Assembly (NCBI GenBank): GCA_963804995.1
Contig: CAWDSK010000005.1
Coordinates: 672,001-736,000 of the forward strand
From: an uncultured Acidobacteriota bacterium
Lineage (GTDB): Bacteria > Acidobacteriota > Terriglobia > UBA7540
Direction: 5' to 3'
DNA: 64,000 nucleotides
The position numbers were made by a program, and so were the translations under genes. Of this stretch, positions 15,745 to 48,189 are shown piece by piece; positions within the stretch are counted from its first letter, which is position 1, and every line of letters starts with the position of its first letter. The notes under the pieces are model-generated. The model did no database searches. It had not been told where the DNA came from and was given only the letters and a program-made list of their open reading frames with translations.

Positions 15745-15767
15745 CTTATTGCGAGGTACAAATTCTA

Positions 15768-19349: not shown

Positions 19350-19408
19350 CCCCGCCGTTACTCTTTCGATCAGCTTAGCTTCCGGCCATTGAGGCGGCCA
19401 ACGGAACA

Positions 19409-20467: not shown

Positions 20468-20487
20468 CCCTACTGTTTGGCTGACGA

Positions 20488-25893: not shown

Positions 25894-25903
25894 GCGACAT
25901 TCA

Positions 25904-26707: not shown

Positions 26708-26846
26708 TAAGTATGCACCTCGCTCGCTGGTCGGAGTCACACCAACGTGTAGGGCTTCGATATCATTTCGACTCAGGCAAATCGGAGCTCGAAGCGTCGC
26801 GCAGGTGCCGGGAAAACAGGATCCTTCTCTAATTGACAGGCCGCAT

Positions 26847-30365: not shown

Positions 30366-30437
30366 TGATCCACGGTTAGCAGGCGTGTTGCGAGGGGATC
30401 CTGCGCCGAACACCTCCTTGATAGATGAGAACAAAGG

Positions 30438-31997
30438 GTGGGGACCTTAGTGCGGAATAACGAAGGTGTCGGGAAAACGCTTCTTTTCTACCTGGGGCTG
30501 GCCGGCGCAGTCTGGCTGGTGCGGGGCTGGATCCTCGCGGGCAATTACAAGACCGTCATCTTGGTTCCCCTAAGTCTCGCTTTGCTGGGCATCGCGGGCT
30601 TGATTACCGGTGACTGGAGGAAAGGGCTCTATGCTTTCCTGGCCTGGCTGTTGTTTGAGGACATGATCCGCAAGTACATGGGCAACAACATGGCAATCTA
30701 CTTTGCTAAAGACGCCCTTGTAGGAATAACCTACCTCTCGTTCCTGCTGGCTAAAACGCGTGAAAAGCGCATCATGTTCCGCGCTCCCTTTCTCTACCCG
30801 CTCGGGCTGTTTGTAGGTCTGGGTGTTGTCCAGGTGTTTAACGCCGATTCACCAAGCATTCTCTATGGTTTGATGGGCCTGAAAATCTACTTTTACTACG
30901 TTCCGTTGATGTTTGTGGGTTATGCGTTCCTCCGCGATGAGGAAGACTTGCGTCGCTTCCTGGTGTTCAATATGGGGATCGCCGCGGTTATCGCTTCGAT
31001 TGCCATCGCTCAATCGGTCTTCGGGCTCAGTTTCCTTAATCCGAGCGGAGGCGCGGAAATTGATGAACTGGGACACCTGACGCGGTTCACATCTACAGGT
31101 GTAGCGGTGTCACGTCCCCCTTCGGTTTTCGTGAGTGAGGGCCGATGTGCTTGGTATCTGATTCTTACTTTCATAATGGGCTTGGGGGCGGCGGGGTACC
31201 TGCTCCTCAAAACGCCCAGAGGCCGAAAAGTTGTCTTTCCCGGCTTGCTCTTGGTGAGCGTTGCGGCCATGATGAGTGGGTCGCGTGGGTGCGCATCATA
31301 CGTCGTTATCAGCGCGCTGGTTCTCTCTGCTGCCTTGCTCTGGGGTGCGCCACCACGCGGGCTCGAGGCCTACCGGCTCTTCAAAGCCATCCGCAGGAGC
31401 TATATGGTGGTTGCGTTGGGCTTGTTCCTGATGCTTGTGGTTTTCCCCGAAGCTATTGGAGCACGCTGGACTTTTTATGCGGAGACCTTGGACCCGAGAA
31501 GTGAAAACTTTGAGGCTTCGAAGCGTGCGTGGGATTATCCCGTTGATAACCTGATGTTGGCGTTTACGGACCCGGAGTGGCCGCTTGGACACGGCATCGG
31601 GACGTCATCATTGGGTGTGCAGTATGTTGCGAAAGTATTGGGACCAGAAGTCGATGCTTCGATACATCGAATGGGCCTCGAAGAGGGATTCGCAACGTTG
31701 ATCTTCGAACTCGGAATCCTTGGCCCGATTCTTTGGTTATTTTGGGCCGGGAGCCTTATCTACACTACCTGGAAAACAGTAGTGCGGGTCAAAGGGACTT
31801 CGACCTTTCCTCTAGCGATTTGCATCTGGTGGTTTGGATTCCTGCTCCTCTTTCCCTTCACCTATGGAGGCTTCCAACCGTATCAGAATTTCGTATATAA
31901 CGCCTACTTTTGGCTTCTAACCGGAATTCTCTTCAGTCTGCCGAGGTTGAGTGAACAAGGTTCTCTCCAACCCGAATCCCTCGTACGTTCCCGCTGA
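30438..31997 (+). CDS. Wzy/O-antigen-ligase-like polytopic membrane protein
   Basis: About 12 TMs; RPPSVF, MSGSRG, PLGHGIG and ELGILG motifs typical of Wzy_C/WaaL-like proteins. Confidence 0.7.
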   Translation: MGTLVRNNEGVGKTLLFYLGLAGAVWLVRGWILAGNYKTVILVPLSLALLGIAGLITGDWRKGLYAFLAWLLFEDMIRKYMGNNMAIYFAKDALVGITYLSFLLAKTREKRIMFRAPFLYPLGLFVGLGVVQVFNADSPSILYGLMGLKIYFYYVPLMFVGYAFLRDEEDLRRFLVFNMGIAAVIASIAIAQSVFGLSFLNPSGGAEIDELGHLTRFTSTGVAVSRPPSVFVSEGRCAWYLILTFIMGLGAAGYLLLKTPRGRKVVFPGLLLVSVAAMMSGSRGCASYVVISALVLSAALLWGAPPRGLEAYRLFKAIRRSYMVVALGLFLMLVVFPEAIGARWTFYAETLDPRSENFEASKRAWDYPVDNLMLAFTDPEWPLGHGIGTSSLGVQYVAKVLGPEVDASIHRMGLEEGFATLIFELGILGPILWLFWAGSLIYTTWKTVVRVKGTSTFPLAICIWWFGFLLLFPFTYGGFQPYQNFVYNAYFWLLTGILFSLPRLSEQGSLQPESLVRSR

Positions 31998-33205
31998 TGG
32001 ACAACAAGCCCCGTGTAGCAGTCATATCACCGTTCCTTGATAAACGGCACGGGACTGAACGATGTGTGGCGGAGCAAGTGGAGTGGCTGTCGCAGAAGTA
32101 CGAAATCCATCTTTACAGTGCCCAGGTTGAGGACATTGAACGCAACACGATCCGCTGGCACCGCATCCCTAATTTGCCAGGCCCTCATCTGCTGCGGTAC
32201 TGCTGGTGGTTTCTTTCCAATCAACTGTTGCGGTGGTGGGATACCAACTTCCGGGGATTCCGATACGATTTGATTTACACGCCAGGCATAAATTGCTTCG
32301 ATGCCGATGTCATATCAGTGCATGTTCTTTTTTCAGAGTTCTACTGCCAGGTCAAAGAGGATCTGAAGCTCCTGCGGAATCCCATCTCGAGTTGGGCCCG
32401 GCTAATCCATCGTCGGCTTTACTATAGACTGATCATTTGGCTAGAGCAGCTTATTTACCCGAGGAAAAGGTCTCTGTTGACGGCGATTTCAAAAAGAACA
32501 GCCGAAAACATGACTTGGTTTGGTAGATCCGAAATCCCCGTGATCTATTACGGGGTCAGCTCGAAACGCTTCAATCCCGAAACTCAGAAGCGCTTGCGCG
32601 ATAAGAGCCGAGGCTCCTTGGGTCTTCCCCCCTCAGCCTTCTGCTTGCTCTTGGTTGGGAACGGTTGGAAGAACAAGGGCTTGGAAACCCTAATAAGAGC
32701 GGTTGGGCTAACCGGGTCCGCGGAACTTCAGTTGCTCGTTGTCGGGCAAGATGACCCTCTTCCTTATCGGAGCGAGATCGTCCACACAGGCCTTGACATG
32801 CGAGTGACTTTTTTCCCCTTGAGGCCTGATGTGGAATTCTACTACGCGGCGTCAGACGTTTACGTCAGCCCCTCCTTGGAAGATGCCTTCGGGTTGCCTC
32901 CCTTGGAGGCCATGGCCTGCGGCCTTCCTGTGATTGTCAGTAGCCGCGCAGGCGTCAGCGAACTCGTAACGGACGGGGTGGATGGGTTGGTTTTGAAGGA
33001 TCCGAAGGATGTTGCGCTTCTCGCTAGGATGATATCGGATCTGTGGAGTAACCCCGTCTTACGAAACAAACTCGGAGAGAATGCTGCACGAACCGCCCAT
33101 CAGTACACGTGGGAACGAAATGCGGCTCAGTTGGACGTGCTCTTCGAACAGGTTCTCGAACGGCGACGGAATCTAAGTTTCGCAAAGACCCCTGTGAAGC
33201 AATGA
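31997..33205 (+). CDS. GT4 glycosyltransferase
   Basis: HGTER, KNKGL, EDAFGLPPLEAMACGLPV. Confidence 0.92.
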   Translation: MDNKPRVAVISPFLDKRHGTERCVAEQVEWLSQKYEIHLYSAQVEDIERNTIRWHRIPNLPGPHLLRYCWWFLSNQLLRWWDTNFRGFRYDLIYTPGINCFDADVISVHVLFSEFYCQVKEDLKLLRNPISSWARLIHRRLYYRLIIWLEQLIYPRKRSLLTAISKRTAENMTWFGRSEIPVIYYGVSSKRFNPETQKRLRDKSRGSLGLPPSAFCLLLVGNGWKNKGLETLIRAVGLTGSAELQLLVVGQDDPLPYRSEIVHTGLDMRVTFFPLRPDVEFYYAASDVYVSPSLEDAFGLPPLEAMACGLPVIVSSRAGVSELVTDGVDGLVLKDPKDVALLARMISDLWSNPVLRNKLGENAARTAHQYTWERNAAQLDVLFEQVLERRRNLSFAKTPVKQ

Positions 33206-34390
33206 AGGTCCTCCTACTCACTCCATCGCTTGAGAGGCCCGGTGGTATCCAGCGTTACACCGTAACCCTGGCACAAGCTCTTAAGGACTTGTTGGGTGAT
33301 CAATCCGTGCGTTGCGTGGGGCCAAAAGAAGACACGGCAGGGCCGGGAAGTGCGCGACTGTCGGGACGTTCTAAATGGCGTTTTGGTTGGCATGCCGCCC
33401 GAGAAGCAGCGCGTTGGCGACCGGACTTAATTATCTGCACCCATCTTGCCTTGGGGCCGGTCGGGTGGCTGGTAAGGATGCTCGCCGGCCCTCCTTACTG
33501 GATCATTGTGCACGGCGTTCGAGGCATGGATGGGGCTTCCCAGGTGGAAGCGTGGTGCTCTGCGTTGAGCCGACCGGGTGATAGTCACTAGCGCCTTCAG
33601 TCGTGGGCAAGTTGTGAAGCGGCACAAGATTGAGGACAAGCGTATATCGAGCCTCCCCTGCACTCTTGACGAGACACTGATAGGTGCCACGCCTGCGGAA
33701 GTGGTCACTTGCGCGCGACTCTCCGACGGGCGACGGTTGGTCTTGACCGTGGCACGAATGGCAGCGTGGGAGCGGTACAAGGGGCACGATGTGGTGCTTC
33801 GAGCCCTCCCATCAGTTGTGGCGAAGATACCAAATCTCACTTACGTGATCGTCGGCGACGGGGACGATCGACCTCGACTGGAAATGCTGGCGCAGGAGTT
33901 GGGACTTATCCAGTACGTCTTTTTTACAGGCGAGGTGACGGAGTCCGAGTTGGCAGCGTTCTACCATCGGAGTGAAGTTTTTGTACTACCTGCCAGGACG
34001 GTCATAGACGAACATGACCCTAAGGGTGAAGGCTTCGGAATTGTCTTTCTTGAAGCTATGGCATTTGGGAAGCCGGTTATCGGGCCAAATTACGGGGCCC
34101 CTGCGGAGTTGATTCGACAGGGAGAGTTCGGAATCCTGGTGGACCCCGAGGATCCGGCTGCAGTTGCCAGCGCGCTCATCCACTTGCTCAATGCGCCCGA
34201 ACAAGCGAAGAGTATGGGAGAGTCAGCAAGGCGATGGGTGAGGCAGGAGTACTCGTTTGAATCCCTCTGTCGGCGGTTGGGAGGTCTACTCGTCGACTCG
34301 GGTTTCGTTAATTGTACCCTGCCGGACCAGGGCGCGGCTCTCGAATCAACTTGGGTGGGTCGTAGCAGTTCGCCTGGAGGTCATCCTTGA
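33202..34390 (+). CDS. GT4 glycosyltransferase; frameshift near 33519 and an in-frame TGA near 33566
   Basis: MKVLLLTP..GGIQRY..VHG joins (ADR)VIVTSAF, ERYKGHD and EGFGIVFLEAMAFG. Confidence 0.85.
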
Positions 34391-35325
34391 GGGATGTGAG
34401 GGCCTTGCAGAAGGCGGCCTTCCTTCAGCTTCACAAGCTGGGCATTCGTTTTGGTATCCACGTTCTCCCGGTCCACTACTACTCGCCCGTAGCAAACATC
34501 CTCGATCTTGAACGGACTAAGCCGGCTTGGGCAAGGAAGTCGGAATTGCCGGGATTAGCCATAAACCTGGATGAACAGGTAAACAACCTGCGAACCATTT
34601 GTCTGCCCTTTCAGAAGGAGTATCTGGGCAACAAGATCTATCACGAGGGCGCAAGGAACCACCGCAAAGCTTTTGGATACATCGAGGCGGAGGCCCTGCA
34701 TGCGGTGATCCGGCATTATCGGCCGCGACGCGTAATCGAAGTAGGGGGAGGGCTCTCGACTTATTGCATGCTCACCGCACTGAAAATGAATCAAGAAGAA
34801 GGAGCCGGAAGCTGGTCAATGGTATCCGTTGAGCCTTATCCCTCTCAAAGCTTAAGAGCGCTGGAGGGAATCAAGCTCATCACCGAGCATATCCAGAGAG
34901 TCCCTCTAGAGCTATTCGCCGACTTAGGCGAGAATGACTTCCTGTTCATTGACTCCTCGCATGCGATGAAACCTGGCAGTGACGTCAATCATTTGATACT
35001 GGAAGTGCTGCCTCGCTTGCGAAGTGGTGTGCTGGTTCACTTCCACGACATCCATCTTCCTTATGATTACCCGCGCGATGTGCTTGAGAATTTCCTGCAT
35101 TTCAATGAAACGTCGCTTCTGCGCGCCTTTCTTATCTTTAACAATCGGGTCAAAATTATCTTCTGTATGAGTCAGCTACACTACGAAAGGCGAGACGCTC
35201 TACAAGAAATCTTTCCGGACTACCGCCCTCAAGCCGATGTGAATGGCTTACGGAATGGGGGGCACAAACCTTTTGCGTCGATAAGTGAGCACTTCCCATC
35301 CTCCCTTTACTTCCAAGTACATTAA
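34387..35325 (+). CDS. Class I SAM-dependent methyltransferase (Methyltransf_24-like)
   Basis: HYYSP, IEVGGGLST, EPYP, FIDSSH..GSDV, HFHDI. Confidence 0.88.
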   Translation: MRDVRALQKAAFLQLHKLGIRFGIHVLPVHYYSPVANILDLERTKPAWARKSELPGLAINLDEQVNNLRTICLPFQKEYLGNKIYHEGARNHRKAFGYIEAEALHAVIRHYRPRRVIEVGGGLSTYCMLTALKMNQEEGAGSWSMVSVEPYPSQSLRALEGIKLITEHIQRVPLELFADLGENDFLFIDSSHAMKPGSDVNHLILEVLPRLRSGVLVHFHDIHLPYDYPRDVLENFLHFNETSLLRAFLIFNNRVKIIFCMSQLHYERRDALQEIFPDYRPQADVNGLRNGGHKPFASISEHFPSSLYFQVH

Positions 35326-35358
35326 ACAGCACGGGTCCAGCCCTTCGGGAGGCGGCTT

Positions 35359-36603
35359 GTGCGAATCCTTAAGGTGACACAAGCATATTATCCCTTCCAG
35401 GAACGGGGAGGACCCGCCGTCAAGGTCCGGTCAATTGCCCGAGCGCTGAGAGGGCTGGGAAATGAGGTTACGGTCCTGACTGCGGACTTGGGTTTCGGAC
35501 CCCGAGAGATCGCGGCTGCCAAGGTGGTTGATGATCCGCAGGGCTGGCGGACCGATCTGGACCGAGTGGAAGTAATTTATCTCAGAACCCGCCTCCATTA
35601 TCGAAATCTGACCGTGAATCCAGGTGTTCTGGGGTTTTGCCGGCGCCGCCTCAAAGAGTTTGAAATTGTCCACATATATGGCCTTTACGACACCTTAGGC
35701 CCCACTGTCGCGCGGTATTGCCGAAAGTTCAGGGTCCCGTATTTTGTGGAACCGCTCGGGATGACGAGGCCAATTGACCGGGGATTTCTGCTCAAAAAGA
35801 TTTGGAGAAAATTGGCAGGGAACTATTTAGGGCGGGCCAGCAAATGGATTGCGACCTCGGAACTGGAAAGGAAGGATTTGCTAGCCGAAGGCATTCCCTC
35901 TGAAAAAGTACTGGTTCGGTTCAATGGAATCGACCGAGAGGATTTCGAGAAGCTCCCTCCGTATGGCGCCTTCCGGAAGAGGCTGGGGATTCCTGACGAC
36001 GAGCGCCTGATCCTTTTCTTGGGCCGTGTGATCCCACGCAAGGGCGCCGATCTTCTCATTGAAGCGCTGCCTCAAATCGGCTGCGGAAAGCTCAAGCTCG
36101 TTATCGCCGGTCCTGAAGGTGAGAACGGGTATTTGGCCTTCCTGCGTGACAAAGCTCGAGCGAAGGGAGTCGGCCAACGAGTTCTGTTCCCGGGGCCTCT
36201 TTATGACGATTTGCAGAAGGAGGCATACGTAGACGCGACGGTGTTTGCGTTGCCGTCGCGATACGAGAACTTTGGCAACACGGCGGCGGAAGCCATCGCT
36301 TGTGGCACTCCCGTGATTGTTTCGGATCGCTGCGGCATAGCTCCCCTCGTTGATCAGCGCGCAGGTCTCGTGACTTCTTATGATTCAAAGGCAGTCGCCC
36401 AAGCTTTGAAGCAGTTGTTAAACAACCCGACCCTTTACCAACGCCTAAAAGCGGGATGCGCACAAGTGGCGGAGGAGATTTCTTGGGAAGGCCTGGTTTG
36501 GGGAATGCAAGATTCATACGAACATGCAAGGGACGATTTTTCCAAACGACGTTCGCTCGTTTCTGCTCCGCAAGCGGACGAGATCAGATCACGCCGAATC
36601 TAA
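35359..36603 (+). CDS. GT4 glycosyltransferase
   Basis: GGPA, GRVIPRKG, ENFGNTAAEAIACGTPV. Confidence 0.92.
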   Translation: MRILKVTQAYYPFQERGGPAVKVRSIARALRGLGNEVTVLTADLGFGPREIAAAKVVDDPQGWRTDLDRVEVIYLRTRLHYRNLTVNPGVLGFCRRRLKEFEIVHIYGLYDTLGPTVARYCRKFRVPYFVEPLGMTRPIDRGFLLKKIWRKLAGNYLGRASKWIATSELERKDLLAEGIPSEKVLVRFNGIDREDFEKLPPYGAFRKRLGIPDDERLILFLGRVIPRKGADLLIEALPQIGCGKLKLVIAGPEGENGYLAFLRDKARAKGVGQRVLFPGPLYDDLQKEAYVDATVFALPSRYENFGNTAAEAIACGTPVIVSDRCGIAPLVDQRAGLVTSYDSKAVAQALKQLLNNPTLYQRLKAGCAQVAEEISWEGLVWGMQDSYEHARDDFSKRRSLVSAPQADEIRSRRI

Positions 36604-36621
36604 TACCGCTCTGAAAGAAGG

Positions 36622-37515
36622 ATGACTACGGAAGCCTTGCTTTTAACTCAACTACAGGAAAAGGGCTCACCTGCGAACTCTCATAGATTGTTTGCCCTGG
36701 GCCAGTTTGCCACCCGGACCTTTTTGATTGCTACCCTTGCTTTATTAGTCTACGGGCTGGCCTGGAACACTTCCACGCGGAGGTACCTGAAAGGGTTCTC
36801 CGACGCCATCCTTCCTCTGGAGGGGTCGGAGCAAGAGAAGACCGAAGCCCTGTTGCGGTGGTTTCGCCACGAGCCTCAGCGGCTTGGAACCCCCGTCTCC
36901 GACTCTGCCTACAACCGTGACCCGGTGATCATTGTCAAAAATACCCGCTTGCTTAAGATCTGCGGGTCAGCGACGAACGCCTTCATTAACTTGGGCGATG
37001 CCGCTGGCCTGAAGACACGGCGTCTGTTGCTGGTCGACAAATTCGGGAATTCGATGCACGTAGTCGCGGAAGTGCAATGGGATGACCGCTGGGTGGTAGT
37101 CGATCCTCAGCAGGGACGCGTGTTCGTGGATCACTTGGGCCGCGGCCTGAGCAAGGAGGAGTTGCGTGATCCCGCGGTGTTCCGCGAGGCCGTCAGCGCT
37201 ATGCCTGGTTACAATCCCGAGTACAGTTTTCAGCACACCATACACATCCGTTTGAGAAGACTTCCCTTTGGACGCCTCTTGCGCATCAGCCTGGACCGTT
37301 TTTCCCCGGGGTGGGAGGAAGCAGCCGACTGGGGTTACATCCCAGAGAATCCCTCGCTCTGGCCGATCCTCGCCTCCATACCTCTGTTTTTCTTGGGCAT
37401 CCTTGCTCATTTATCTTTTCGTCGGTACGGCCGCAACAAACTAGGCATCGAGGCGCGAGGTCTTCGGCAGCGGCTGATACAGGCCGGGCGCGCCTTCCTT
37501 TATCGATCGGCATAA
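36622..37515 (+). CDS. Membrane-anchored transglutaminase-like (Cys-His-Asp) protein
   Basis: TM near each terminus; ICGSATNAF, HVVAEV and WVVVDP triad spacing. Confidence 0.7.
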   Translation: MTTEALLLTQLQEKGSPANSHRLFALGQFATRTFLIATLALLVYGLAWNTSTRRYLKGFSDAILPLEGSEQEKTEALLRWFRHEPQRLGTPVSDSAYNRDPVIIVKNTRLLKICGSATNAFINLGDAAGLKTRRLLLVDKFGNSMHVVAEVQWDDRWVVVDPQQGRVFVDHLGRGLSKEELRDPAVFREAVSAMPGYNPEYSFQHTIHIRLRRLPFGRLLRISLDRFSPGWEEAADWGYIPENPSLWPILASIPLFFLGILAHLSFRRYGRNKLGIEARGLRQRLIQAGRAFLYRSA

Positions 37516-37529
37516 AACTGGCATAACAA

Positions 37530-39452
37530 ATGTGTGGAATATGTGGGGTAGTAGGCGTCACGGATCCTGAGCCGACGCTAAGTGTTGTGCGGCGGATGAT
37601 GGGGGAGATGTGTCACCGCGGCCCGGATGATGAGGGCATGTTCGTGGATGACTCCGTCACCCTGGGGATGCGCCGGCTCAGCATTATCGATCTCAACGGT
37701 GGACACCAGCCGGTGTTCAATGGCGACCGAACTGTCGTCGTCGTGTTCAATGGAGAGATTTACAACTTCCAGGAACTCCGGCGCACCCTCGAATCCCGTG
37801 GCTACCCCTTCCGGACAGGGAGCGACACAGAGGTTATCGTCTACGCCTACGAGGAATGGGGAGAGGATTGTGTGGATCACTTCGAGGGCATGTTCGCATT
37901 CGCCCTCGCGGAGACATCGAAGTCCACTCGCCGTGGCAATCCCCGGGTCCTGATGGCGCGCGATCGCCTGGGCATCAAGCCTCTCTACTACGCCCTCGTC
38001 GATGGCAACCTGATATTTGCTTCAGAAGTCCGCTCTCTCCTGGCTTCGGGTCAAGTTGAACCGCGGCTATCGCAGACGGCATTGCGCAGTTATCTCCTGT
38101 TTGGTTCGGTCGTGGAGCCCATGACGCTGGTCGAGGGCATCTATTCCCTGCCACCTGGGCATCGGATTATCATTTCGGCGGCTGGGCGCCACACCTCGGT
38201 TCGCCCCGAGCCCTATTGGGACTTCGCGGAGTCTGCTCGCCCCACTCTTGACACCAAGAAGCGAGAGCGTTGCTCCGCGACGGCGTTCCTGCGTTCGCTC
38301 CTGGAAGAAACGGTCGAGTCCCATTTGACCGCCGATGTGCCCCTGGGAGTTTTCCTGAGCAGTGGCATCGATTCCACCGCCCTCGTCGCCCTCGCGACCC
38401 AGAAGAAAGCTGCCGTGAACACCGTAACCGTGGTCTTCCCGGAGCAGGAGTTTAGTGAGGCGGAAGTCGCTCGTCGCACCGCGCAGCGATTTGGAACGAA
38501 TCACCAGGAACTCACTTTGAGCGGCGACGACATGTTAACGCGCCTGACCGAAGCAGTGGGTGCTCTCGACCAGCCCAGCATGGATGGCATCAACACATAC
38601 TTTGTTTCCTGGGCGGCACGGCAAGCAGGCCTGAAAGTAGCCCTCTCGGGACTGGGTGGTGACGAGATTTTCGGAGGGTACAGCACCTTCCGCTCGACCC
38701 CGGATGCACAGTCCGTGGCGACTCTGGCGCAAACCGTCCCGGGGGGCCTCCGCTCCAGCCTGGCCTCCGCGGCGGAGGGAATCTTGGGGCATTTCCATAG
38801 AAAAGATTCTCACCGCAAGATGGCCGCACTGTGGCGAGACCCCAATTTTCTGCCGCACCCTTATTTCTACACCCGGCTCCTGTTTACCCCGGACCAGGTG
38901 TTGGGATTGTTGAAGGGTAATGACCTTGACTCGCCGGAACCATGGAAAGATTGGCTGGAGCAAACGGCGCGGGAATCGAAACAGCTTGATGATTTCACCG
39001 CCGTGTCTTGTCTGGAATCACGATCTTATATGGTCGACACCCTCCTCCGAGACACGGATGCCATGAGTATGGCTCACTCACTTGAGGTGCGGGTGCCGTT
39101 TCTTGACCATGCCCTGGTTGAGTTCGTAACTCGACTTCCGGGATCGATCAAGCAGACCGCCGGTGTATCCAAGTCGTTGCTGGTTGACGCCGTCGCTGAT
39201 CTGTTACCCGGGGAGGTTGTCTCGCAGCGGAAACGAACTTTCACTCTGCCGTGGGAGCACTGGCTTCGGGGCGCCCTGAGGAAGCAAGTGGAAACGGAGT
39301 TGAAGACCCTGGCGCCCGCGCTCGAGGAATGTCTCAGCGTTCGTGCTGTCGGGCGAGTCTGGTCAGATTTCCTACGCGGGCGCACGTCCTGGTCGCGCGT
39401 CTGGAGCCTTTTTGTTTTGAACCGTTGGGCTCAGCAACACCTGGGCTGCTGA
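37530..39452 (+). CDS. asnB: Asparagine synthase (glutamine-hydrolysing) family amidotransferase
   Basis: MCGICG N-terminal nucleophile, HRGPD, RRLSIID, NGEIYN, LSSGIDS, SGLGGDE, SLEVRVPFLD. Confidence 0.93.
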   Translation: MCGICGVVGVTDPEPTLSVVRRMMGEMCHRGPDDEGMFVDDSVTLGMRRLSIIDLNGGHQPVFNGDRTVVVVFNGEIYNFQELRRTLESRGYPFRTGSDTEVIVYAYEEWGEDCVDHFEGMFAFALAETSKSTRRGNPRVLMARDRLGIKPLYYALVDGNLIFASEVRSLLASGQVEPRLSQTALRSYLLFGSVVEPMTLVEGIYSLPPGHRIIISAAGRHTSVRPEPYWDFAESARPTLDTKKRERCSATAFLRSLLEETVESHLTADVPLGVFLSSGIDSTALVALATQKKAAVNTVTVVFPEQEFSEAEVARRTAQRFGTNHQELTLSGDDMLTRLTEAVGALDQPSMDGINTYFVSWAARQAGLKVALSGLGGDEIFGGYSTFRSTPDAQSVATLAQTVPGGLRSSLASAAEGILGHFHRKDSHRKMAALWRDPNFLPHPYFYTRLLFTPDQVLGLLKGNDLDSPEPWKDWLEQTARESKQLDDFTAVSCLESRSYMVDTLLRDTDAMSMAHSLEVRVPFLDHALVEFVTRLPGSIKQTAGVSKSLLVDAVADLLPGEVVSQRKRTFTLPWEHWLRGALRKQVETELKTLAPALEECLSVRAVGRVWSDFLRGRTSWSRVWSLFVLNRWAQQHLGC

Positions 39453-39500
39453 CTTGGCGGTTCTCGCCTGAACGCGGGCAAGACCCTTACGGACCCATCC

Positions 39501-41294
39501 ATGAACATTCTGGGAATTAACGCTTATCACGCCAACGCCTCTGCGGCGCTCTTGTGTGACGGGCGGCTGGTGACGGCGGTGGAGGAAGAACGCTTCAACC
39601 GCGTGAAATACGCGGCGGGCTTTCCAGCAACCGCGGTCCGGCACTGCCTTTCTGAAGCCGGACTGACCATCAAGGACATTGATCACATCGCGATTCCGCG
39701 TAACCCCTGGGCCCGGATTGCGACGAAGCTCTTCTACGCCGTCCGCATGCCGCGTTTTACTCTTGACCGCTACCGGGCCATGACCCACTTCCGTGGGATT
39801 CGAGAGGACCTTGCCGCGGCGTGTGAGGTTGACCCGCAGGCCATTCGCGCCCAGCATCATCGCGTTGAACACCACGTCGCGCACTTGGCCAGCGCCTTCT
39901 TCGTCTCACCCTTCGATCGGGCGGCCGTGCTTTCTACTGACGGATTGGGCGACTTCGCGAGCACCATGTGGGCAACGGGAGAAGGCAACCGCCTCAACGT
40001 CCACGGAGCGGTGGCGTTTCCCCATTCCCTGGGACTTTATTACACCGCACTCAGCCAGTACCTGGGATTCTGGAGATTCGGTGACGAATACAAGGTGATG
40101 GGATTGGCCGCGTACGGCGAACCGAGCCAGGTTGAGGAACTCCGTCGCATTGTCACGGCCGGCAACGGCAAAGGGTTTGCGCTTGGCCTCAAATATTTCT
40201 GCCACCACCGGACGGGGCCGGAGATGACCTGGCAGGAAGACGGCAAGACTCCCGTTCTGGGTCAGCTTTTTTCCCCTTACCTCGAGGAGCGCCTGGGAAA
40301 GACGCGCACTGCCGCCGAGCCGGTCGGCAAAAACCACAAAGACCTTGCTGCCTCGATGCAAGCGGTCCTGGAAGAAGCGTATTTTCGATTATTGAACCAC
40401 TTGCACCCCATATCCGGTCTAAGCCAGGTGTGTCTGGCAGGGGGTGTGGCTTTCAACTGTGTGGCGAATGGCAAGATTTTCGATAACACGCCGTTTTCAG
40501 AAGTTTACGTCCAGCCCGCCGCCGGTGATGCCGGACTGTCCGTGGGCGCAGCCTACTACGTCTATCATCAAATCCTCGGGCAGCCGCGCAGCTTCGTCAT
40601 GGAGCATGCGTATTGGGGACCGCAGTTTACCCCGGAGGCTATCGGACAGGCTTTGCGAGACAGCCAAGCCAAGGGTTCGAGTCTCCCTGTGCGCAGATTC
40701 TCCGACGAGGAGTTGGTGCACATCACAGCCAAACACCTCGCCGATGGCAAAATTGTGGGATGGTTTCAGGGGAGGGCAGAGTGGGGCCCGCGCGCGCTGG
40801 GAAACAGAAGCATTCTGGTTGATCCACGTCGCGCCGAAATGAAGGACATCCTCAATCAGAGGATCAAACACCGGGAACCCTTTCGCCCTTTCGCTCCTTC
40901 CATTCTGGAAGAGTCCACTGCACAATTCTTCGAGCGCTCACACCCCTCGCCTTTTATGAACCTTGCCTATTCTGTGCGCCCTGACAAGCGCGCCACGATT
41001 CCTGCTCCTACGCACGTGGATGGAACTGGCCGTCTCCAGACCGTGAGCCGCCGGACCAATCCTCTTTATTGGTCGCTGATCAAGGAATTCGAAAACCTCA
41101 CCGGCGTACCCGTCCTGCTCAACACTTCCTTCAATGAAAATGAGCCAATAGTCTTGAAGCCGCAAGAGGCCATCGACTGCTTCCTCCGAACCCGGATGGA
41201 TGTTTTAGTGCTGGGGAATTACGTGGTTGAAAAACCGCCGCAACCCCCCGCGCCCGAGGACCGTGCCGCAGCAGAGAAGATCGTGAAGGCTTGA
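39501..41294 (+). CDS. Second O-carbamoyltransferase, NodU/CmcH family
   Basis: EEERFNRVK, HHVAH, EYKVMGLAAYG, AGGVAFNCVAN, GPRALGNRS, HVDGTGRLQ, NTSFN. Confidence 0.95.
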   Translation: MNILGINAYHANASAALLCDGRLVTAVEEERFNRVKYAAGFPATAVRHCLSEAGLTIKDIDHIAIPRNPWARIATKLFYAVRMPRFTLDRYRAMTHFRGIREDLAAACEVDPQAIRAQHHRVEHHVAHLASAFFVSPFDRAAVLSTDGLGDFASTMWATGEGNRLNVHGAVAFPHSLGLYYTALSQYLGFWRFGDEYKVMGLAAYGEPSQVEELRRIVTAGNGKGFALGLKYFCHHRTGPEMTWQEDGKTPVLGQLFSPYLEERLGKTRTAAEPVGKNHKDLAASMQAVLEEAYFRLLNHLHPISGLSQVCLAGGVAFNCVANGKIFDNTPFSEVYVQPAAGDAGLSVGAAYYVYHQILGQPRSFVMEHAYWGPQFTPEAIGQALRDSQAKGSSLPVRRFSDEELVHITAKHLADGKIVGWFQGRAEWGPRALGNRSILVDPRRAEMKDILNQRIKHREPFRPFAPSILEESTAQFFERSHPSPFMNLAYSVRPDKRATIPAPTHVDGTGRLQTVSRRTNPLYWSLIKEFENLTGVPVLLNTSFNENEPIVLKPQEAIDCFLRTRMDVLVLGNYVVEKPPQPPAPEDRAAAEKIVKA

Positions 41295-41342
41295 TATCTC
41301 GCGTCGCGATATGCCGATCCGGTACCACACATTGATTAACAA

Positions 41343-41412
41343 CCCTCTCCGAGGGGAAGGGTGGACCGCAGCCCACGTTTTCATCGGCCGGGGCGGGACG
41401 GGTGAAGGGGTT
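41343..41412. repeat. REP-like intergenic repeat (CCCCTCACCC...CCCTCTCCC family)
   Basis: The reverse complement ccccttcacccgtcccgccccggccgatgaaaacg..ccacccttcccc aligns with cccctcacccgtctggcatcggctgatgagaacg..ccaccctctcccc at about 48710. Confidence 0.75.
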
Positions 41413-41503
41413 ACTCGCGGGTTCGGGGCGTTTGAAGATTCCAGGAATTCAAAACCGATTAGCCCCGGCAAACCCGTGACGCGAATTCCGCGCTAACAAC
41501 TAG

Positions 41504-42697
41504 ATGCGCATCCTTCTGCTAAACGAATATTTCCCCCCGGACACGGCGGCGACTGCCCACATGGCAGCGGCCGTGGTGGATGCGCTGGCCGAACGTCATC
41601 AAGTAACCGTGCTCTGTGGGCGGCCCTCTTACGATCCGTCCGAGAGGCACCCGTTTTACCTCTTTCGGCGTGACCAGCGGGGCGCGGCAGTGGTGGAGCG
41701 CGTGGGCTCAACCACCTTCCCACGCTTTCGCATGCTGCATCGAGTTTGGAATTATCTCACCTACGTGGTTCTCTCGGTTCCACGCGCCCTGATGGTACGG
41801 ACAGACTTGATCATGGCCATGACCGATCCTCCCTTTGAAGGGATCGTCGGTGCCTTCGTGGCCTGGCTCAAACGCAAGCCGTTCGTCTACAACATTCGCG
41901 ACCTTTATCCGGAGATGGCGCTCGCGGGCAACATCGTTCGCCCCTCCTGGTGGGTGGGGACCTGGGAGCGGCTTCACCGCTGGGCGCTCCGGCGGGCGAG
42001 GCGCGTGATCGTGCTGGGAGAAGACACTCGCGAACGCATCATTGCCAAAGGCATCGATCCTGCGCGCGTGGTCGTGGTCCGGGATGGGGCGCCCGCCACG
42101 CCGCCGGTAACGGGTCAAGACCATCCTATCGTCCAGGAGATTCGTGACGGCTTTTCTTTTGTAGTTCTGCATGCCGGCAACCTGGGCTTTTACGGAGCTT
42201 GGGAAACGGTTATCGAGGCTGCCGAAATGCTCGATCACCAAGGTGTCGGGTTCGTGTTCGTGGGCGAGGGGGCTTTACGTGCCCAAGTGGAAGCTGCAGC
42301 CCATGGGGTCGAGGGGATCAGGTTTCAGCCCTTCCGCCCTGCCGATCAAATTCCTTACGTCTTGGCTGCTGGAGACTTGCACCTGGTGACGGTCAAACGC
42401 GGGCTGGAAGGTGTCGTGGTTCCCAGCAAGCTTTATGCAATCCTGGCGGCGGGCCGTCCGGTATTAGCCCTGGCTCCCGAGGAAACTGACGCAGCCCGGG
42501 TGGTGCGCCGGATGGGTTGCGGAGTGGTTGTCGACCCGGACGATCCCGCTGCCACCGCCCGAATTATCCACGAACTTGCGCACGACCGTGAGCGCGTGGC
42601 CCGCATGGGTGAACGCGCCCTTGCGGCGTCGAAGAACTTCGGGAGAGAAGAAGAACTTCAACTCTTCCGACGGGTTATTGAGGAGGTGCCATGCTAG
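41504..42697 (+). CDS. GT4 glycosyltransferase (WcaI/WbuB-like)
   Basis: NEYFPPD, TDPP, RDLYPE, HAGNLG, VPSKLY..LAAGRP. Confidence 0.9.
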   Translation: MRILLLNEYFPPDTAATAHMAAAVVDALAERHQVTVLCGRPSYDPSERHPFYLFRRDQRGAAVVERVGSTTFPRFRMLHRVWNYLTYVVLSVPRALMVRTDLIMAMTDPPFEGIVGAFVAWLKRKPFVYNIRDLYPEMALAGNIVRPSWWVGTWERLHRWALRRARRVIVLGEDTRERIIAKGIDPARVVVVRDGAPATPPVTGQDHPIVQEIRDGFSFVVLHAGNLGFYGAWETVIEAAEMLDHQGVGFVFVGEGALRAQVEAAAHGVEGIRFQPFRPADQIPYVLAAGDLHLVTVKRGLEGVVVPSKLYAILAAGRPVLALAPEETDAARVVRRMGCGVVVDPDDPAATARIIHELAHDRERVARMGERALAASKNFGREEELQLFRRVIEEVPC

Positions 42698-43758
42698 GCG
42701 GAGTGCTGACTTTCACCGTAGCCTTTGCAACCTCCTGGGGTTTGACACTTCCCATACGGCGGATGGCTCTCCACTGGGGGTTGGTTGACCACCCAAGCCC
42801 GCGCAAGATTCATCGCACCCCGATTCCGTTGTTCGGGGGAATTGCCATTTACTGCGGTACGGTCCTGGCCATCACTTTGTTTGTGGACAGCCGGGCGCGT
42901 GGCCAGATCTTTGGCATTCTTGCCGCTTCGACACTCTTGTTGATCGTGGGCATTCTCGATGACCGCAAGCTGCTGCACCATCAAATCAAGTTATTTGTCG
43001 CCATGCCCCTGGCAGCCTTGACGCTTGTGGCTTTGGGAGTCACAACGCACGTGGGATCGGCCCTTCTACCGGGGCCTGTTGGAGCGGCCCTTGACATAGC
43101 GCTTACACTGCTCTGGGTTGTTGGCATCACCGCCGCCTACAACATTTTCGATCACATGGACGGTCTCGCCAGCGGCATTGCTGCCATGGCCTCGCTGTTT
43201 TTCACGTTGCTGGCGATCCGGGAAGGTCAGGTTCTGGTAGCGACTTTGGGGGCTGCGGTTCTTGGCGCCTCGCTGGGGTTTCTGGGATGGAATTTTAACC
43301 CTGCCAAGATTTTCATGGGAGACGGCGGTGCCATGTTTCTGGGCTTCATGGTGGCAACCTTAGGGCTCAAGCTGCGCCTCGAAGACGTGCCGGAAGCCAC
43401 CAGTTGGATGATTCCGGTGCTGCTTTTGATTGTCCCCATTTTCGATACCACGCTGGTTGTGATTTCTCGATCCCGTCGCAGATTGATTCCCTTTGCTTCG
43501 CCCGGTAAGGACCACACTGCCCACCGTCTGGCGAATGTGGGCTTGGGACAGCGCGGCGCCGTCCTGGTGCTTTATGCCGTGGGAGCTGGTTCTGGTCTCG
43601 TGGCCTGGCTGGTTTGCCGTCTATCCGTGGCCGCTGCTTACGTTGTCGCAGGTGTGGTGACGTTAGCTGTTCTGGCCGCGCTTGTGGCACTTCGAGCGGT
43701 TTCCCTACGAGCCCCAAAGCAGGCCTGGGACCGCGACGTAGGGTTTGTTCGGTTGTAG
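42691..43758 (+). CDS. wecA: MraY/WecA family polyprenyl-phosphate GlcNAc-1-phosphate transferase
   Basis: DHPSPRKIH..P..GG, GILDD, NIFDHMDGL, NFNPAKIFMGDGG, DHTAHRL. Confidence 0.9.
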   Translation: MLGGVLTFTVAFATSWGLTLPIRRMALHWGLVDHPSPRKIHRTPIPLFGGIAIYCGTVLAITLFVDSRARGQIFGILAASTLLLIVGILDDRKLLHHQIKLFVAMPLAALTLVALGVTTHVGSALLPGPVGAALDIALTLLWVVGITAAYNIFDHMDGLASGIAAMASLFFTLLAIREGQVLVATLGAAVLGASLGFLGWNFNPAKIFMGDGGAMFLGFMVATLGLKLRLEDVPEATSWMIPVLLLIVPIFDTTLVVISRSRRRLIPFASPGKDHTAHRLANVGLGQRGAVLVLYAVGAGSGLVAWLVCRLSVAAAYVVAGVVTLAVLAALVALRAVSLRAPKQAWDRDVGFVRL

Positions 43759-43892
43759 CGATAGTCTCCCTAGCACCCCCAAGAGTGGGGTATACTGTGG
43801 CGGCTAAATTGCCCCCGGGATAGGAAATTGGATGGCAAATGATTTCGAACTTGGCCGCTCATCTGACGGCGGACATTTTTGCATGAGGATGC

Positions 43893-45071
43893 GTGGCTAG
43901 GCTCCAACGAACCCCTCACCAAATTGCGATTGTTGGCGGATCGGCTGCTGGCCTTTTTACCGCCTATTTGCTGGCCCGCGCCGGACGCGAGGTGCAGGTC
44001 TTTGAGGGCCAGGACCAGCTCGATTCGGCCTCGCGCACTCTGATTGTTACCGATCGAATGCGCGAGACCCTGGGTGGGCTGGGCGAAAAGGCAGTCGTCA
44101 ACGAGATCCGGCAATTTGAGTTATTCACGGACGGACGAGCGGCCCAAATCGCGCTCCGCCGCCCTGATCTTGTTATTGAGCGCAGCACGCTTATCAATGA
44201 ACTGGCCGGCGCGGCCCAAGGGGCGGGAGCCCGCGTTTTGTTCGGCCGAAAACTCCTCTCTCTCCACGGACAAGACCACAGTTTGACGCTGCGCATGGGC
44301 CGCAGCCAGGGTGGCGGCACGGAGGAGGCGCAGTTCCGCATCGTGGTGGGCGCAGACGGAGCTGGCAGCCGAGTGGCTCAGGCAGCGGGCTGGCGCAAAC
44401 AGCGTACAGTCCCGTTGGTACAGACGGTTGTTGACTTACCCCCCGGAATGCCCCCCAGCACAGTTCGGGTTTGGTTTGTTCCCGATGACACGCCTTATTT
44501 CTACTGGCTCATTCCCCACTCACCCACGCAGGCCGTAGTAGGTCTCATCGGTGAACACGCGTCGGAGACAAGGTTGGCGCTGGAACGCTTCATGGAGAAG
44601 CACCACCTCAATCCCCTGGAATACCAGGGGGCCAGGATCCCCGTCTATACCGGTTGGATTCCGGTTCGCCGTCAGTTGACGGGTGGCGACGTTTACCTGG
44701 TTGGGGATGCTGCCGGCCACGTCAAGGTCACGACGGTGGGTGGAATTGTCACCGGCTTCCGCGGAGCTATCGGAGTTTCGGAGGCCATTCTGAACGGCGG
44801 GTCCAGCCGCAAGCTCGGTGCCCTGCGACGCGAGCTGAATACCCACCTGCTGATCCGCAAGCTGATTCACGGTTTCAATCAGGCTGATTACTCGCGTTTA
44901 GTAGATCTCTTGAATGCCCGCACTCGCAAGGATTTGGCCTCTCACACGCGTGATGAGCCCGGCGGCGTGCTACTGCGCCTCTGCCTCCACCAGCCGCGCT
45001 TGTTACTGCTGGGTCTGCGTGCCTTGATCAGTGGCGCCAGCTTCCCCGGCCCGTCCCCCACGGGCGTGTAA
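43893..45071 (+). CDS. FAD-dependent oxidoreductase, geranylgeranyl-reductase-like
   Basis: IVGGSAAG, VGADG, FYWLIP, LVGDAAGHVKVTTVGGI. Confidence 0.8.
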   Translation: MARLQRTPHQIAIVGGSAAGLFTAYLLARAGREVQVFEGQDQLDSASRTLIVTDRMRETLGGLGEKAVVNEIRQFELFTDGRAAQIALRRPDLVIERSTLINELAGAAQGAGARVLFGRKLLSLHGQDHSLTLRMGRSQGGGTEEAQFRIVVGADGAGSRVAQAAGWRKQRTVPLVQTVVDLPPGMPPSTVRVWFVPDDTPYFYWLIPHSPTQAVVGLIGEHASETRLALERFMEKHHLNPLEYQGARIPVYTGWIPVRRQLTGGDVYLVGDAAGHVKVTTVGGIVTGFRGAIGVSEAILNGGSSRKLGALRRELNTHLLIRKLIHGFNQADYSRLVDLLNARTRKDLASHTRDEPGGVLLRLCLHQPRLLLLGLRALISGASFPGPSPTGV

Positions 45072-45462: not shown

Positions 45463-46365
45463 ATGCGGAAGATTGACCGCCTCGTGTGGGCGGAGGGACT
45501 GTGCTTCGAATCCTACGGCGTGAAGATCGGGATTCGTTCGAGCCAACCTGGCGTAATGGACCGGCTCCGACCGTTTCTGCCGCCACGCTGGGAAGCGATC
45601 GAACCGCCGCGCCGTCTCGATGCGCTCTACTCCTGGGTGGTAGGCGGTGAGCGCAAGCCCAAGGTGCGAACTTTCGACGTGATGTACGCGGGCGTGGGCC
45701 GGATCGCGCGGACGCTCAAGCCCGAGGAACTGTTCGAGACGTTTGAAGCGAACTTGCGGTTGACGGTCGCCCTGCTTTCGCGGCGCTTCGTGTTCATCCA
45801 TGCGGGTGCGGTCGGCTGGCGTGGGCGCGCCATCCTGATACCCGGGCGCAGCTTCACCGGCAAGTCGACCCTGGTCGAGGCGTTGGTGCGTGGGGGCGCT
45901 GAATACTTTTCGGACGAATATGCGATGTTGGATAGAAGCGGGCGTGTGCATCCCTTTCCCAAGCCGATTTCGGTCCGGATGCCGGTAACGCTCCGGCAGG
46001 AACCTCGCACCCTGGAAGAGGTCGGCGGCCGGGCTGCCGAATGCGCCATGAAGGTCGGCGCCATACTCGTCACCCGTCACCGTAAGGGTGCACGGTCGCG
46101 CTTTCGCAGGGCCTCACCCGCCCAAGGTGCCCTTGATCTTGTTGCGAACGCGGTGGCGGCACGCTGGGCTCCGGCGCGCGTGCTGCGTGCCACCTGCAAG
46201 GCGAGCGCAGACGCTATGGTGCTCCGCGGCCCGCGCGGCGAAGCGGAAGAAGCAGTGGAACGGTTGTTCGCGATTCTGGACTGGCGAGAAGCAGTACACA
46301 TCAAATCCCCCTCAGGATGTGTTTATGACCTCACAGAAAAATATGCCTGGGCGGCCCAAGGCTAG
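45463..46365 (+). CDS. HPr-kinase-related P-loop kinase (RiPP-associated type)
   Basis: FIHAGAV, GRSFTGKST, FSDE, PFPKP. Confidence 0.8.
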   Translation: MRKIDRLVWAEGLCFESYGVKIGIRSSQPGVMDRLRPFLPPRWEAIEPPRRLDALYSWVVGGERKPKVRTFDVMYAGVGRIARTLKPEELFETFEANLRLTVALLSRRFVFIHAGAVGWRGRAILIPGRSFTGKSTLVEALVRGGAEYFSDEYAMLDRSGRVHPFPKPISVRMPVTLRQEPRTLEEVGGRAAECAMKVGAILVTRHRKGARSRFRRASPAQGALDLVANAVAARWAPARVLRATCKASADAMVLRGPRGEAEEAVERLFAILDWREAVHIKSPSGCVYDLTEKYAWAAQG

Positions 46366-46858
46366 GACCAAGGGCCTGATCGTCGAAGAAGCTGGGAGTG
46401 AGCTGTTGGTTTATGATCGTAACAATGATCACGTCCATTCTCTGAACGGTCCTGCCGCCCGCATCTGGAGGCTCTGCACCGGCAGACGCACGGTGGAACA
46501 GATTGCCTCGGAGCTCGATATCCCTCTCGACCCCGCCGAGCGGAAGCTGGTGGTCCGCGACGCCATTACAAAATTCGAACGTCTGGGTTTGGTTGATGCC
46601 GCCGAGGGCGCGCCTGCCAATCCGTCGCGTCGGATGTGGGCTCGACGAATCAGCATTGGCGTGGCGGCGGGGGTGGCCCTGCCGCTAGTGACTTCCATCA
46701 TTGCGCCCACCTCTGCGTACGCGGCTAGCAAGCTAGGGACTGGCGCCACATGTTCTACGAGCACGCAATGCGCGTCGGGGTGCTGCTGCTCGAACAACAG
46801 TACTGGTCATCACTTCCAATGTGAGACGTCAGCGGTCTGCGGTGGTTCCTGTGAATAG
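46325..46858 (+). CDS. PqqD/RRE domain fused to a Tat-like signal segment and a Cys-rich tail (candidate self-contained precursor)
   Basis: ELLVYD..HSLNGPAARIWRLCTGRRTVEQIA (RRE); SRR..GVAAGVALPLVTSIIAPTSAYAAS; tail with 8 Cys. Confidence 0.8.
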   Translation: MTSQKNMPGRPKARTKGLIVEEAGSELLVYDRNNDHVHSLNGPAARIWRLCTGRRTVEQIASELDIPLDPAERKLVVRDAITKFERLGLVDAAEGAPANPSRRMWARRISIGVAAGVALPLVTSIIAPTSAYAASKLGTGATCSTSTQCASGCCCSNNSTGHHFQCETSAVCGGSCE

Positions 46859-46935: not shown

Positions 46936-46965
46936 GCAAAGGGTACGGCAAGCCGTACCCCTACG
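46936..46965. repeat. REP-like palindrome (GTAGGGG family, reverse orientation); possible terminator between convergent genes
   Basis: aagggtacggc-aa-gccgtacccctac. Confidence 0.6.
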
Positions 46966-47007: not shown

Positions 47008-48189
47008 TTATCCGTCTTGATCCGCGTTGATCTGCGGCCCGAACTGATTTTCGCTTGACCCTCGCCGCCTAGTCAGTTTTTCCCAGCCCGCTTGCAGCGA
47101 CCACCGCATCACGCTCCAAGCGATCCGCAACGGCCGCAGCGGGTAATAGAGGAAGAAGAGGAAACGCGGCAGGTGGATGAATCCCCAGTCCGCCAGCGTA
47201 GGCACAAACAGGCGGATAGCGGCAAAGCGCAGCCTTTCGGAAAGCGTCGGGAGCAATCGCGCCGAGAAGGCGATTTCGCTCGGTACCTGGAGAGACGCGA
47301 ACCCCTCGAGCGTCCGCGGGATTCGAGGCGCAAAGCCCGGGGGAGCGGGCGTGCCAAGTTGAGCGCTACAGGCGCCCAAGCTCAACTCGACGGCGTCGAC
47401 CCATCCCAAAGCCTGGGCCTTCTGCTTGACGATTTCCCAGTCGATTCCCCCTCGCGAGCAGAGCGCGTCCAAGTCCACTTGCCACTTCAGTTCGATCCAG
47501 CCGTGCCGGGCGGCGTGTACAGCCAGGTAAAGGAATTCCCACTCGGGGCTGAGCGCTAAGGTGGGACATCCGAAGAAGTTTACGGGGCGAGCCTCTCGCC
47601 AGACCTCACCGATCAGTTTCTCTTCGAGTCGTCCTCCCCAGACGAGGCCCCAGTGCAGTTCCAGCATAGCCTGACTTTCCTTGCCCATCAGGGTCCAGTC
47701 CTTGCCGTAGCGGAGCGTGAGGTCTTTGAAGAGGGGTGGACTCGAGTCGGGCCGGTATCCCGAAGCCCTCACGATCTCAAGGGCCTCGCGAGCGCGCTCC
47801 GGCTGAACCAGGATATCGAGGTCGCCCGTGAGGCGGAGAGAGACGTCGCCATAGAGCTCCTCGGCCAACGCGACGCCCTTGAGCGGGATTGCCGAAATTC
47901 CAGCCTTGCCCAGCAAGCGCAGCAGTCGGGCCAGCTCCTGGGCCAGCCGCAGGCTGCGGTTTCGATTGGCGTGCGAATCCCTCTGGAGCTTCAGGCGAAT
48001 CGGGTCAGGGACGCCCGGGAAACCCAAGAGATGGTGAGTGACCAGAGGCGACACCCGGTGAGCCTGCACGCGCTCGAGAAACTGGCCCCACCCGAGCGGC
48101 CCCGCCAGGATGTCGCGGGCGCGCCGCTCATCTTCCGGTGAGGGCCGCACCCGCGCCAACAGCAGGCACAACTGATCTTCCCGCGTCAT
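47008..48189 (-). CDS. Nucleotidyltransferase family protein (NTP_transf_5-like)
   Basis: PLKGVALA..LYGD..R..GDLDILV, LELHW, YLAVHAARHGW..LKWQVDL. Confidence 0.85.
   Translation of the reverse strand: MTREDQLCLLLARVRPSPEDERRARDILAGPLGWGQFLERVQAHRVSPLVTHHLLGFPGVPDPIRLKLQRDSHANRNRSLRLAQELARLLRLLGKAGISAIPLKGVALAEELYGDVSLRLTGDLDILVQPERAREALEIVRASGYRPDSSPPLFKDLTLRYGKDWTLMGKESQAMLELHWGLVWGGRLEEKLIGEVWREARPVNFFGCPTLALSPEWEFLYLAVHAARHGWIELKWQVDLDALCSRGGIDWEIVKQKAQALGWVDAVELSLGACSAQLGTPAPPGFAPRIPRTLEGFASLQVPSEIAFSARLLPTLSERLRFAAIRLFVPTLADWGFIHLPRFLFFLYYPLRPLRIAWSVMRWSLQAGWEKLTRRRGSSENQFGPQINADQDG

Follow-up and report, generated by a model that had tools for sequence, protein, structure and literature searches.

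A widespread protein family that joins an RRE, an internal Tat-type signal and a cysteine-rich tail, and whose RRE probably binds its own signal

The locus and the fusion gene

The window, that is, the whole 64,000-nt stretch of DNA analysed here, carries a 45-kb polysaccharide biosynthesis locus that is closed by two overlapping genes. One encodes an HprK-like kinase, and the other a single protein consisting of an N-terminal RRE, an internal export signal and a small tail predicted to be rich in disulfides (Table 1). The two reading frames share 41 nt. Matches to Wzy_C, Wza and Wzc lie just upstream of the window on the same contig.

Table 1. Features of the kinase-fusion region, with positions in the window
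Feature	Position (nt)	Strand	Evidence
Polysaccharide biosynthesis locus (glycosyl-, methyl- and carbamoyltransferases, GT4 initiating transferase, FAD oxidoreductase)	71..45071	+	
HprK-like kinase, intact Walker A and SDE motifs	45463..46365	+	TIGR04352, 1.4e-14, below cut-off
RRE-signal-core fusion protein (P0001), 177 aa	46325..46858	+	Open frame and family searches
RRE, PqqD/lasso B1-like winged helix, residues 9-92	46349..46600	+	PF05402; fold 6jx3_B, 5v1u_A; pLDDT >90
Twin-arginine motif, residues 101-106, degenerate in the window member	46625..46642	+	RR in 427/433 relatives
Hydrophobic h-region, residues 109-127	46649..46705	+	Mean hydropathy 2.14
Predicted RRE-binding strand, Pro120-Ile126, within the h-region	46682..46702	+	Models and couplings
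AxA-type signal peptidase I site, Ala131-Tyr132-Ala133, Pro128 at -6; putative cleavage	46715..46723	+	
Core of 44 residues with 8 Cys and Ser at +2; knottin-derived, I-IV pair missing	46724..46858	+	
Terminator-like hairpin between the convergent genes	46939..46962	-	5 sites versus 3.8 in shuffles, hence weak
PF14907 nucleotidyltransferase, convergent	47008..48189	-	PF14907, 6e-58; cassette membership uncertain

An AGGA ribosome-binding-like site precedes the ATG at 46325, and close relatives of the fusion protein share this start position. Because the relatives start at the ATG, the GTG at 46088 was ruled out as the start of the gene. A nested internal start that would yield a free precursor was also rejected, as a start codon with a ribosome-binding site occurred in 5/102 compared with 4/102 in a control stretch.

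The N-terminal part had been read as PqqD-like from the letters of the sequence, and this was confirmed by a match of residues 28-64 to PF05402 (3.7e-7, above the cut-off). Two AlphaFold models of the fusion protein, built from 26 and 150 sequences, had mean pLDDT values of 76 and 88. The modelled residues 9-92 form the winged helix and three-stranded sheet of an RRE; the best structural match was the lasso B1 RRE 6jx3_B (Z 10.3, rmsd 1.8, 83 residues aligned), with Z 9.6 to 5v1u_A. Strand 3 comprises residues 36-41 and bears His38 and Asn41. The RREs of the family have two conserved cysteines, at positions 39 (85%) and 51 (95%); the window member has Ser at 39. In NCBIfam, the kinase and the RRE are most similar to models of the HPr-rel-A system (TIGR04352, TIGR04353) and SynChlorMet, all below cut-offs: the kinase scored 53.9 bits against TIGR04352 (cut-off 200), and the RRE part scored 24.6 bits against the PqqD chaperone model TIGR04353 (cut-off 35). 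The chaperone models of these systems span 74-84 positions and cover the RRE only.

We compared 99 loci that carry the fusion gene (79 + 20 from two sets), which are not independent and many of which are short. A PF14907 nucleotidyltransferase was present at 70 of them and an HprK-like kinase at 61, with either enzyme at 81, both at 50 and neither at 18 (11/64 among loci of at least 14 kb). The usual gene order is kinase, fusion, transferase, with the kinase mostly directly 5' of the fusion. Thus the overlapping upstream kinase, which the earlier note had singled out, is a conserved partner; that note mentioned neither the nucleotidyltransferase nor the polysaccharide setting, which recurs at 45/99 loci. 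Large secreted proteins flank the cassette at 37/99 loci (e.g., L037, L047, L055), and the member tested ends in a C25 peptidase. A MauE-thioredoxin fusion is found at 6/99. Two unnamed proteins, one of a cysteine-cluster type and one of a His-x-His type, recur at seven loci each. No exporter or peptidase cluster recurs across the 99 loci; in BLASTP searches, which miss distant peptidases, an ABC exporter like that of the window was found at 1/99 and an S24/S26 peptidase like that of the window at 0/99.

The window kinase is of the cassette type, being 44-49% identical to cassette kinases at other loci. The window nucleotidyltransferase matches three proteins of the 99 loci, at 26-31%, and falls in an eight-row clade with long branches, apart from 74 others. 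Since it belongs to another subfamily than the usual one, its membership of the cassette is uncertain. The same minor clade is found in three close metagenomic relatives and at a locus of Gemmatirosa kalamazoonensis. This locus (L229, plasmid 1, NZ_CP007129.1) holds a kinase, the fusion, a MauE/thioredoxin-like gene and a convergent nucleotidyltransferase, and a PEP-CTERM-like protein with Gly-Thr-Pro repeats is encoded near the cassette.

Family, export signal and cysteine-rich tail

A single-sequence search with the fusion protein returned 26 proteins, and a profile returned 816 among 8,000 candidates. Exhaustive searching gave 5,424 clusters (50% identity) at E<=1e-3 and 2,067 at E<=1e-10, a number that argues against a chance fusion; with thousands of intact relatives, a missed stop or frameshift splitting the RRE from the tail is implausible. 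We pooled 508 sequences and kept 433 after removing short alignments and sequences more than 90% identical; counts out of 427 refer to the RR-bearing subset of these. The relatives were selected by whole-protein likeness, so the conservation values given below are inflated. The expectation that a conserved RRE and twin-Arg segment would carry hypervariable Cys tails was borne out, with RR in 427/433 relatives and diverse tails. Homologues also retain the fusion: a profile of the C-terminal half (46 sequences) found 387 proteins of 33-189 residues, and PF05402 was present in 117 of the best 120 of these matches.

Named carriers are mostly Blastocatellia and Pyrinomonadaceae, together with Binatia, Nitrospinota, Methylomirabilota and Chloroflexia bins. 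In the phylum of the window, 73/401 genomes matched at 1e-8 and 30 at <=7e-29, most of the others matching through the RRE only. The window's genome has one copy of the fusion gene; searches of 28 genomes from its genus and 36 from its family gave no match, which indicates a patchy distribution here. Among viral contigs, none of 14 pattern matches was a relative. Tandem paralogues of the fusion gene with differing tails occur within single genomes (L143, L122, L144). Candidates for a free-standing precursor were rejected: one (G221:C3) sits, in our reading, behind a decayed RRE, and two short proteins seem to result from start codons called too late. Lone 88-residue RREs near the family are encoded at L138:6078-6344 and L139:6067-6330, with no precursor or enzymes seen near the former.

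The fusion family, a very large one of soil bacteria, is real and widespread, and it is apparently undescribed. NCBI labels its members 'PqqD family protein' only, and a whole-protein search of the ESM Atlas returned unnamed or PqqD-labelled clusters only. We found no description of the family in the literature searched, in which subscription papers are thinly covered. The legible parts of RRE-Finder (PMC7470986) leave the fusion architecture unmentioned, and a mention is possible in some illegible parts of its supplement. An RRE as part of the substrate never appears in the literature searched, where RREs are separate adaptors or parts of enzymes.

The segment of twin arginine, hydrophobic stretch and AxA site is present in the reading frame as the earlier note described it. 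The h-region hydropathy of the window member equals the family median (2.14), and an uncharged run of at least 13 residues is found in 425/427 relatives with RR. Position -1 of the predicted site is A, G or S in 401/427 and position -3 is small in 388/427; Pro128 is conserved at 98%, and the distance from RR to the predicted cleavage is 28-33 residues in 413/427. By a TATFIND-type rule, 362/427 pass and the window member fails. The combination of Z-R-R-X-phi-phi (motif from PMC13673990) and an h-region that marks Tat substrates is found in the family, the motif occurring strictly in 322/433 relatives and loosely in 409/433. In the window member it is found loosely only, as S-R-R-M-W-A with Ala counted as hydrophobic. 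The window member matches no Tat-signal model of Pfam or NCBIfam, and PF10518 was matched by only 3/46 tails. The aromatic residue of the canonical Y/W-x-x-P appears in only 3/433 relatives, with an aliphatic residue in its place. A TatC gene is present in the window's genome and in 5/5 other carriers tested, which discriminates little because TatC is common.

From these features we infer Tat export and cleavage at the AxA site. According to a Tat review (PMC13673990), the pathway tolerates a folded domain at the N-terminus, as in the uncleaved FecR, as well as small passengers that are unfolded; signal chaperones are described there as platforms rather than targeting factors. A cleaved internal signal is absent from the five substrate classes listed there. 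The fusion family resembles class V (FecR) in that a folded cytoplasmic domain precedes an internal Tat signal; the FecR signal is uncleaved, whereas the conserved AxA here argues for cleavage. REMP chaperones likewise use the signal as a platform, although they are separate proteins.

The cysteine spacing of the tail is exactly as first written, C-x5-C-x3-CCC-x10-C-x5-C-x3-C, and its pLDDT is 92-95 over residues 141-177. Its description as knottin-like suits the majority of the family, with knottin C-C-CC-C-C spacing in 294/427 tails, but not the window member, which lacks the full set of six knottin cysteines. The first module could be fitted to 276 of 433 sequences; among these, Cys I and Cys IV are both present in 209 and both absent in 42; Cys I stands alone in 25 (several mis-registered) and Cys IV in none. 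We take I-IV to be a bond of the cystine knot. This loss of cysteines in pairs, together with an even Cys number in 411/419, points to disulfides, with metal binding less likely; of the two options first offered, four disulfides or a metal site, the sequences favour the former. The window member is among the 42, with Lys in place of Cys I and Ala in place of Cys IV, and it carries CCC plus two extra C-terminal cysteines. Without the I-IV bond it is, judged by its sequence, knottin-derived, with another four-bond pattern and no full knot. Its C-x5-C-x3-CCC start is common to seven of the 427 tails.

Eight of the 427 tails have no cysteine at all, and some are Gly-Pro-Thr repeats. Tails gave weak matches to ICK families, a likeness in cysteine spacing alone that says nothing on activity. 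Fold searches were filled by the RRE and barely probed the tail's own fold, and the tail alone gave no usable match in the ESM Atlas. Ser or Thr occupies +2 in 381/427 tails, compared with 20% at the other tail positions; small residues commonly follow a signal peptidase site. Tails beside MauE-thioredoxin genes are longer and have a mean of 10.6 Cys versus 6.1 (10 vs 107 proteins). In two close relatives (L151:5458-6228 and L157:4396-5184) the tail runs into a CFI-box-CTERM-like domain (~1e-6, below the cut-off); CFI-box-CTERM is a surface-sorting domain.

Coupling between the RRE and the signal

The suggestion that the RRE binds an internal leader was examined in models and in covariation. 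Both AlphaFold models of the fusion protein have a strand at residues 122-126. A structural aligner matched residues 5-129 of the model to 135-1020 of the NisB-NisA chain 4wd9_A. This chain has 1,006 residues versus 996 in another NisB chain, with a three-residue offset, and hence 13 extra C-terminal residues, which we infer to be the bound leader; the alignment extends to residue 1020, inside these 13.

In a mean-field coupling analysis of the 433 sequences, His38 and Ser124 were coupled more strongly than any other two positions (z 7.8), followed by intradomain pairs and Asn41-Pro120 (z 5.3). The rank of His38-Ser124 was 2-14 in six random halves and its coupling fell to about zero after shuffling; in shuffled alignments the best chance pair reached z 2.5-5.2, with 5.2 reached once. 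The Asn41-Pro120 and Ala13-Ala127 couplings were unstable in halves, the former dropping to rank 402 in one half. A Trp48-Ser135 coupling was dropped as an artefact of misaligned columns. Simple counts agree with the top pair: 16 sequences lack Ser/Thr at 124 and 15 of these lack His38, which is absent from 42/433 overall. The next-best RRE column against position 124 gave p 1.4e-3, against 7e-16 for His38. On a tree built without columns 36-41, the double change at His38 and Ser124 had about 14 separate origins, and the sequences that carry it are not merely the most divergent rows.

In the solved PbaB1 complex, the strand-3 partner of leader residue Pro+4 is the residue that precedes the conserved Leu by two positions (PMC13381572). 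When we mapped the PbaB1/LppB-leader register onto the fusion protein by analogy, Ser124 would face His38. Co-evolution of these residues in the register of solved RRE-leader complexes suggests that the RRE probably binds its own signal. Complex prediction for the RRE (6-94) with the leader (97-137) counts neither way (score 0.06, mark 0.32). The grip could be made in cis or as a swapped dimer; covariation is compatible with both and cannot tell them apart. The covariation evidence for the self-grip and for I-IV cysteine pairing is new here. The earlier note's interpretation is supported in part: the conserved fusion and the kinase partner stand, self-binding is probable, and the knottin label suits the family majority better than the window member.

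A proposed pathway, related systems and alternatives

Among known systems the family is closest to the LPP RiPPs, and it is a member of neither LPP nor lasso tailoring. LPPs are linear polyphosphorylated peptides encoded by lppAKBSDN in Bacillota, as described by Popov et al. 2026 (PMC13381572). Both systems combine an RRE, an HprK-like kinase and an uncharacterised NTP transferase in (capsular) polysaccharide loci, and both have a conserved leader, a variable core, a Ser near the core start and, as predicted here, type I signal-peptidase chemistry. In LPP, however, the RRE is discrete and the precursor separate, whereas here they are fused, in this reading frame as in the 117 of the best 120 tail matches. 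The LPP leader reads YxxPxVLxHQxIxFETxxS; the one here is Tat-type with another consensus, its aromatic at Pro-3 limited to the same 3/433. LPP has a dedicated SpI peptidase and an MsbA-like exporter, neither of which recurs here (0/99 and 1/99), and the disulfide-rich cores of the window family are unlike those of LPP.

The lasso systems paeninodin and pseudomycoidin (PsmK/PsmN) share the B1-type RRE fold, the HprK-like kinase and a nucleotidyltransferase; in pseudomycoidin, the nucleotidyltransferase is needed for a hexose on phosphoserine (PMC6993621). In phosphorylated lasso peptides the modified Ser is C-terminal and the product is a lasso, whereas the window module lacks a cyclase and a B2 peptidase. 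Asparagine-synthase-like genes were found at 7/99 loci, with no recurring B2 cluster, and the one in the window belongs to the polysaccharide locus and encodes a complete glutamine-dependent enzyme.

We favour, with a probability of roughly 0.55, a self-recruiting precursor that receives its modification in the cytoplasm, leaves by the Tat route and is freed by signal peptidase I. The N-terminal RRE would fold and grip its own leader, with residues 120-126 forming a fourth beta-strand. Because the leader would double as the h/c-region of the internal Tat signal, the grip would hold the precursor in the cytoplasm and present the core start to the HprK-like kinase, which would probably act on the Ser/Thr at +2 (Ser135 here). 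The nucleotidyltransferase may come next and add a phospho-sugar or nucleotidyl group; this second modification, like the first, is modelled on LPP and pseudomycoidin. After release, TatC would read the twin Arg, and the short hydrophilic core would cross the membrane while the RRE stays inside. Housekeeping signal peptidase I would cut after AxA, and disulfides would form outside, helped in some loci by the MauE-thioredoxin fusion. The product may be a mini-protein of knottin type that serves in the envelope or in the exopolysaccharide matrix, a role guessed from gene context.

It is conceivable, though unlikely, that the core is exported and cleaved in unphosphorylated form, with the RRE serving only as a signal chaperone and the enzymes acting elsewhere, for example on a polysaccharide precursor. 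Ser/Thr at +2 is unlinked to the presence of the kinase (0.87 with a kinase in the locus, 0.83 without), the nucleotidyltransferase varies in subfamily and position, and LppN yielded no product in its own system (PMC13381572). Yet the kinase gene usually lies directly 5' of the fusion, and overlaps it here; RRE-adjacent HprK-like kinases phosphorylate peptide Ser in LPP and pseudomycoidin; and Ser/Thr at +2 far exceeds its frequency elsewhere in the tails. We are more doubtful that the protein is an uncleaved class V Tat substrate, which would keep the RRE inside, anchor in the membrane and expose the Cys-rich part as a sensor or scaffold for polysaccharide machinery. FecR offers a precedent (PMC13673990), an h-region hydropathy of 2.1 would suffice for an anchor, and polysaccharide genes accompany many loci. 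However, AxA and the Pro at -6 are both conserved, with constant spacing, the tandem paralogues with differing tails resemble peptide diversification, and the h-region strand co-evolves with an RRE cleft that it could not fill while in the membrane. Least credible is a pathway without Tat, in which the RRE and linker are a large folded leader, the arginines serve a protease or kinase and the core is an internal metal-binding peptide or leaves through an unlinked transporter: the window motif is degenerate, Tat-signal models are rarely matched and the RRE would mask a signal, but pairwise Cys loss and even counts indicate disulfides and so an oxidising compartment, Z-R-R-X-phi-phi, h-region and AxA co-occur in most members, and there are links to MauE-thioredoxin and CFI-box-CTERM.

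If the RRE does grip the Tat signal of its own chain, leader recognition as in RiPPs and the chaperoning of Tat signals would be united in a single sequence, and a cleaved internal Tat signal would add to the five substrate classes known so far. We regard it as possible, at somewhat less than even odds, that the self-recruiting precursor represents both a sixth Tat substrate class and a new RiPP design, in which recognition, modification timing, export and leader removal lie in one chain, yielding thousands of bacterial phospho(glyco)-knottins, possibly tied to cell-surface polysaccharide. The family, with thousands of clusters mostly in Acidobacteriota, would be a rich source of bacterial cystine-knot peptides. 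As a compact three-gene system it could show the role of PF14907 nucleotidyltransferases and of the polysaccharide-locus setting, and a named carrier strain, Gemmatirosa kalamazoonensis KBS708, makes native tests possible.

Other features lie downstream in the window. A SynChlorMet-like cassette at 50478-57641 encodes an ScmC-like kinase homologue, two radical SAM/SPASM enzymes, a discrete PqqD, an S24/S26 peptidase, a peptide-arginase-like fragment and an ABC exporter. We rejected it as the maturation machinery of the fusion protein, as its enzymes recur at 0-1 of the 99 loci and the cassette comes with an RRE and precursor of its own. The likely precursor is a 58-residue reading frame at 52689-52865 (+) with a W-x-x-P-x-L leader and three cysteines, which has no NCBIfam match. 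The gene at 55043-55519 (+) matches the C-terminal half only of peptide arginase NF052474 (profile 135-286) and may be split or truncated. At 49064-49964 (+), overlapping frames of 197 and 135 aa, the first without a Pfam match, resemble one frameshifted methyltransferase-like gene. A direct repeat with a unit of about 78 nt, present twice in full and once in part, occupies 50029-50200, and genes for an HTH regulator, a PD-(D/E)XK nuclease and Uma2 at 58149-61989 suggest the edge of a mobile element.
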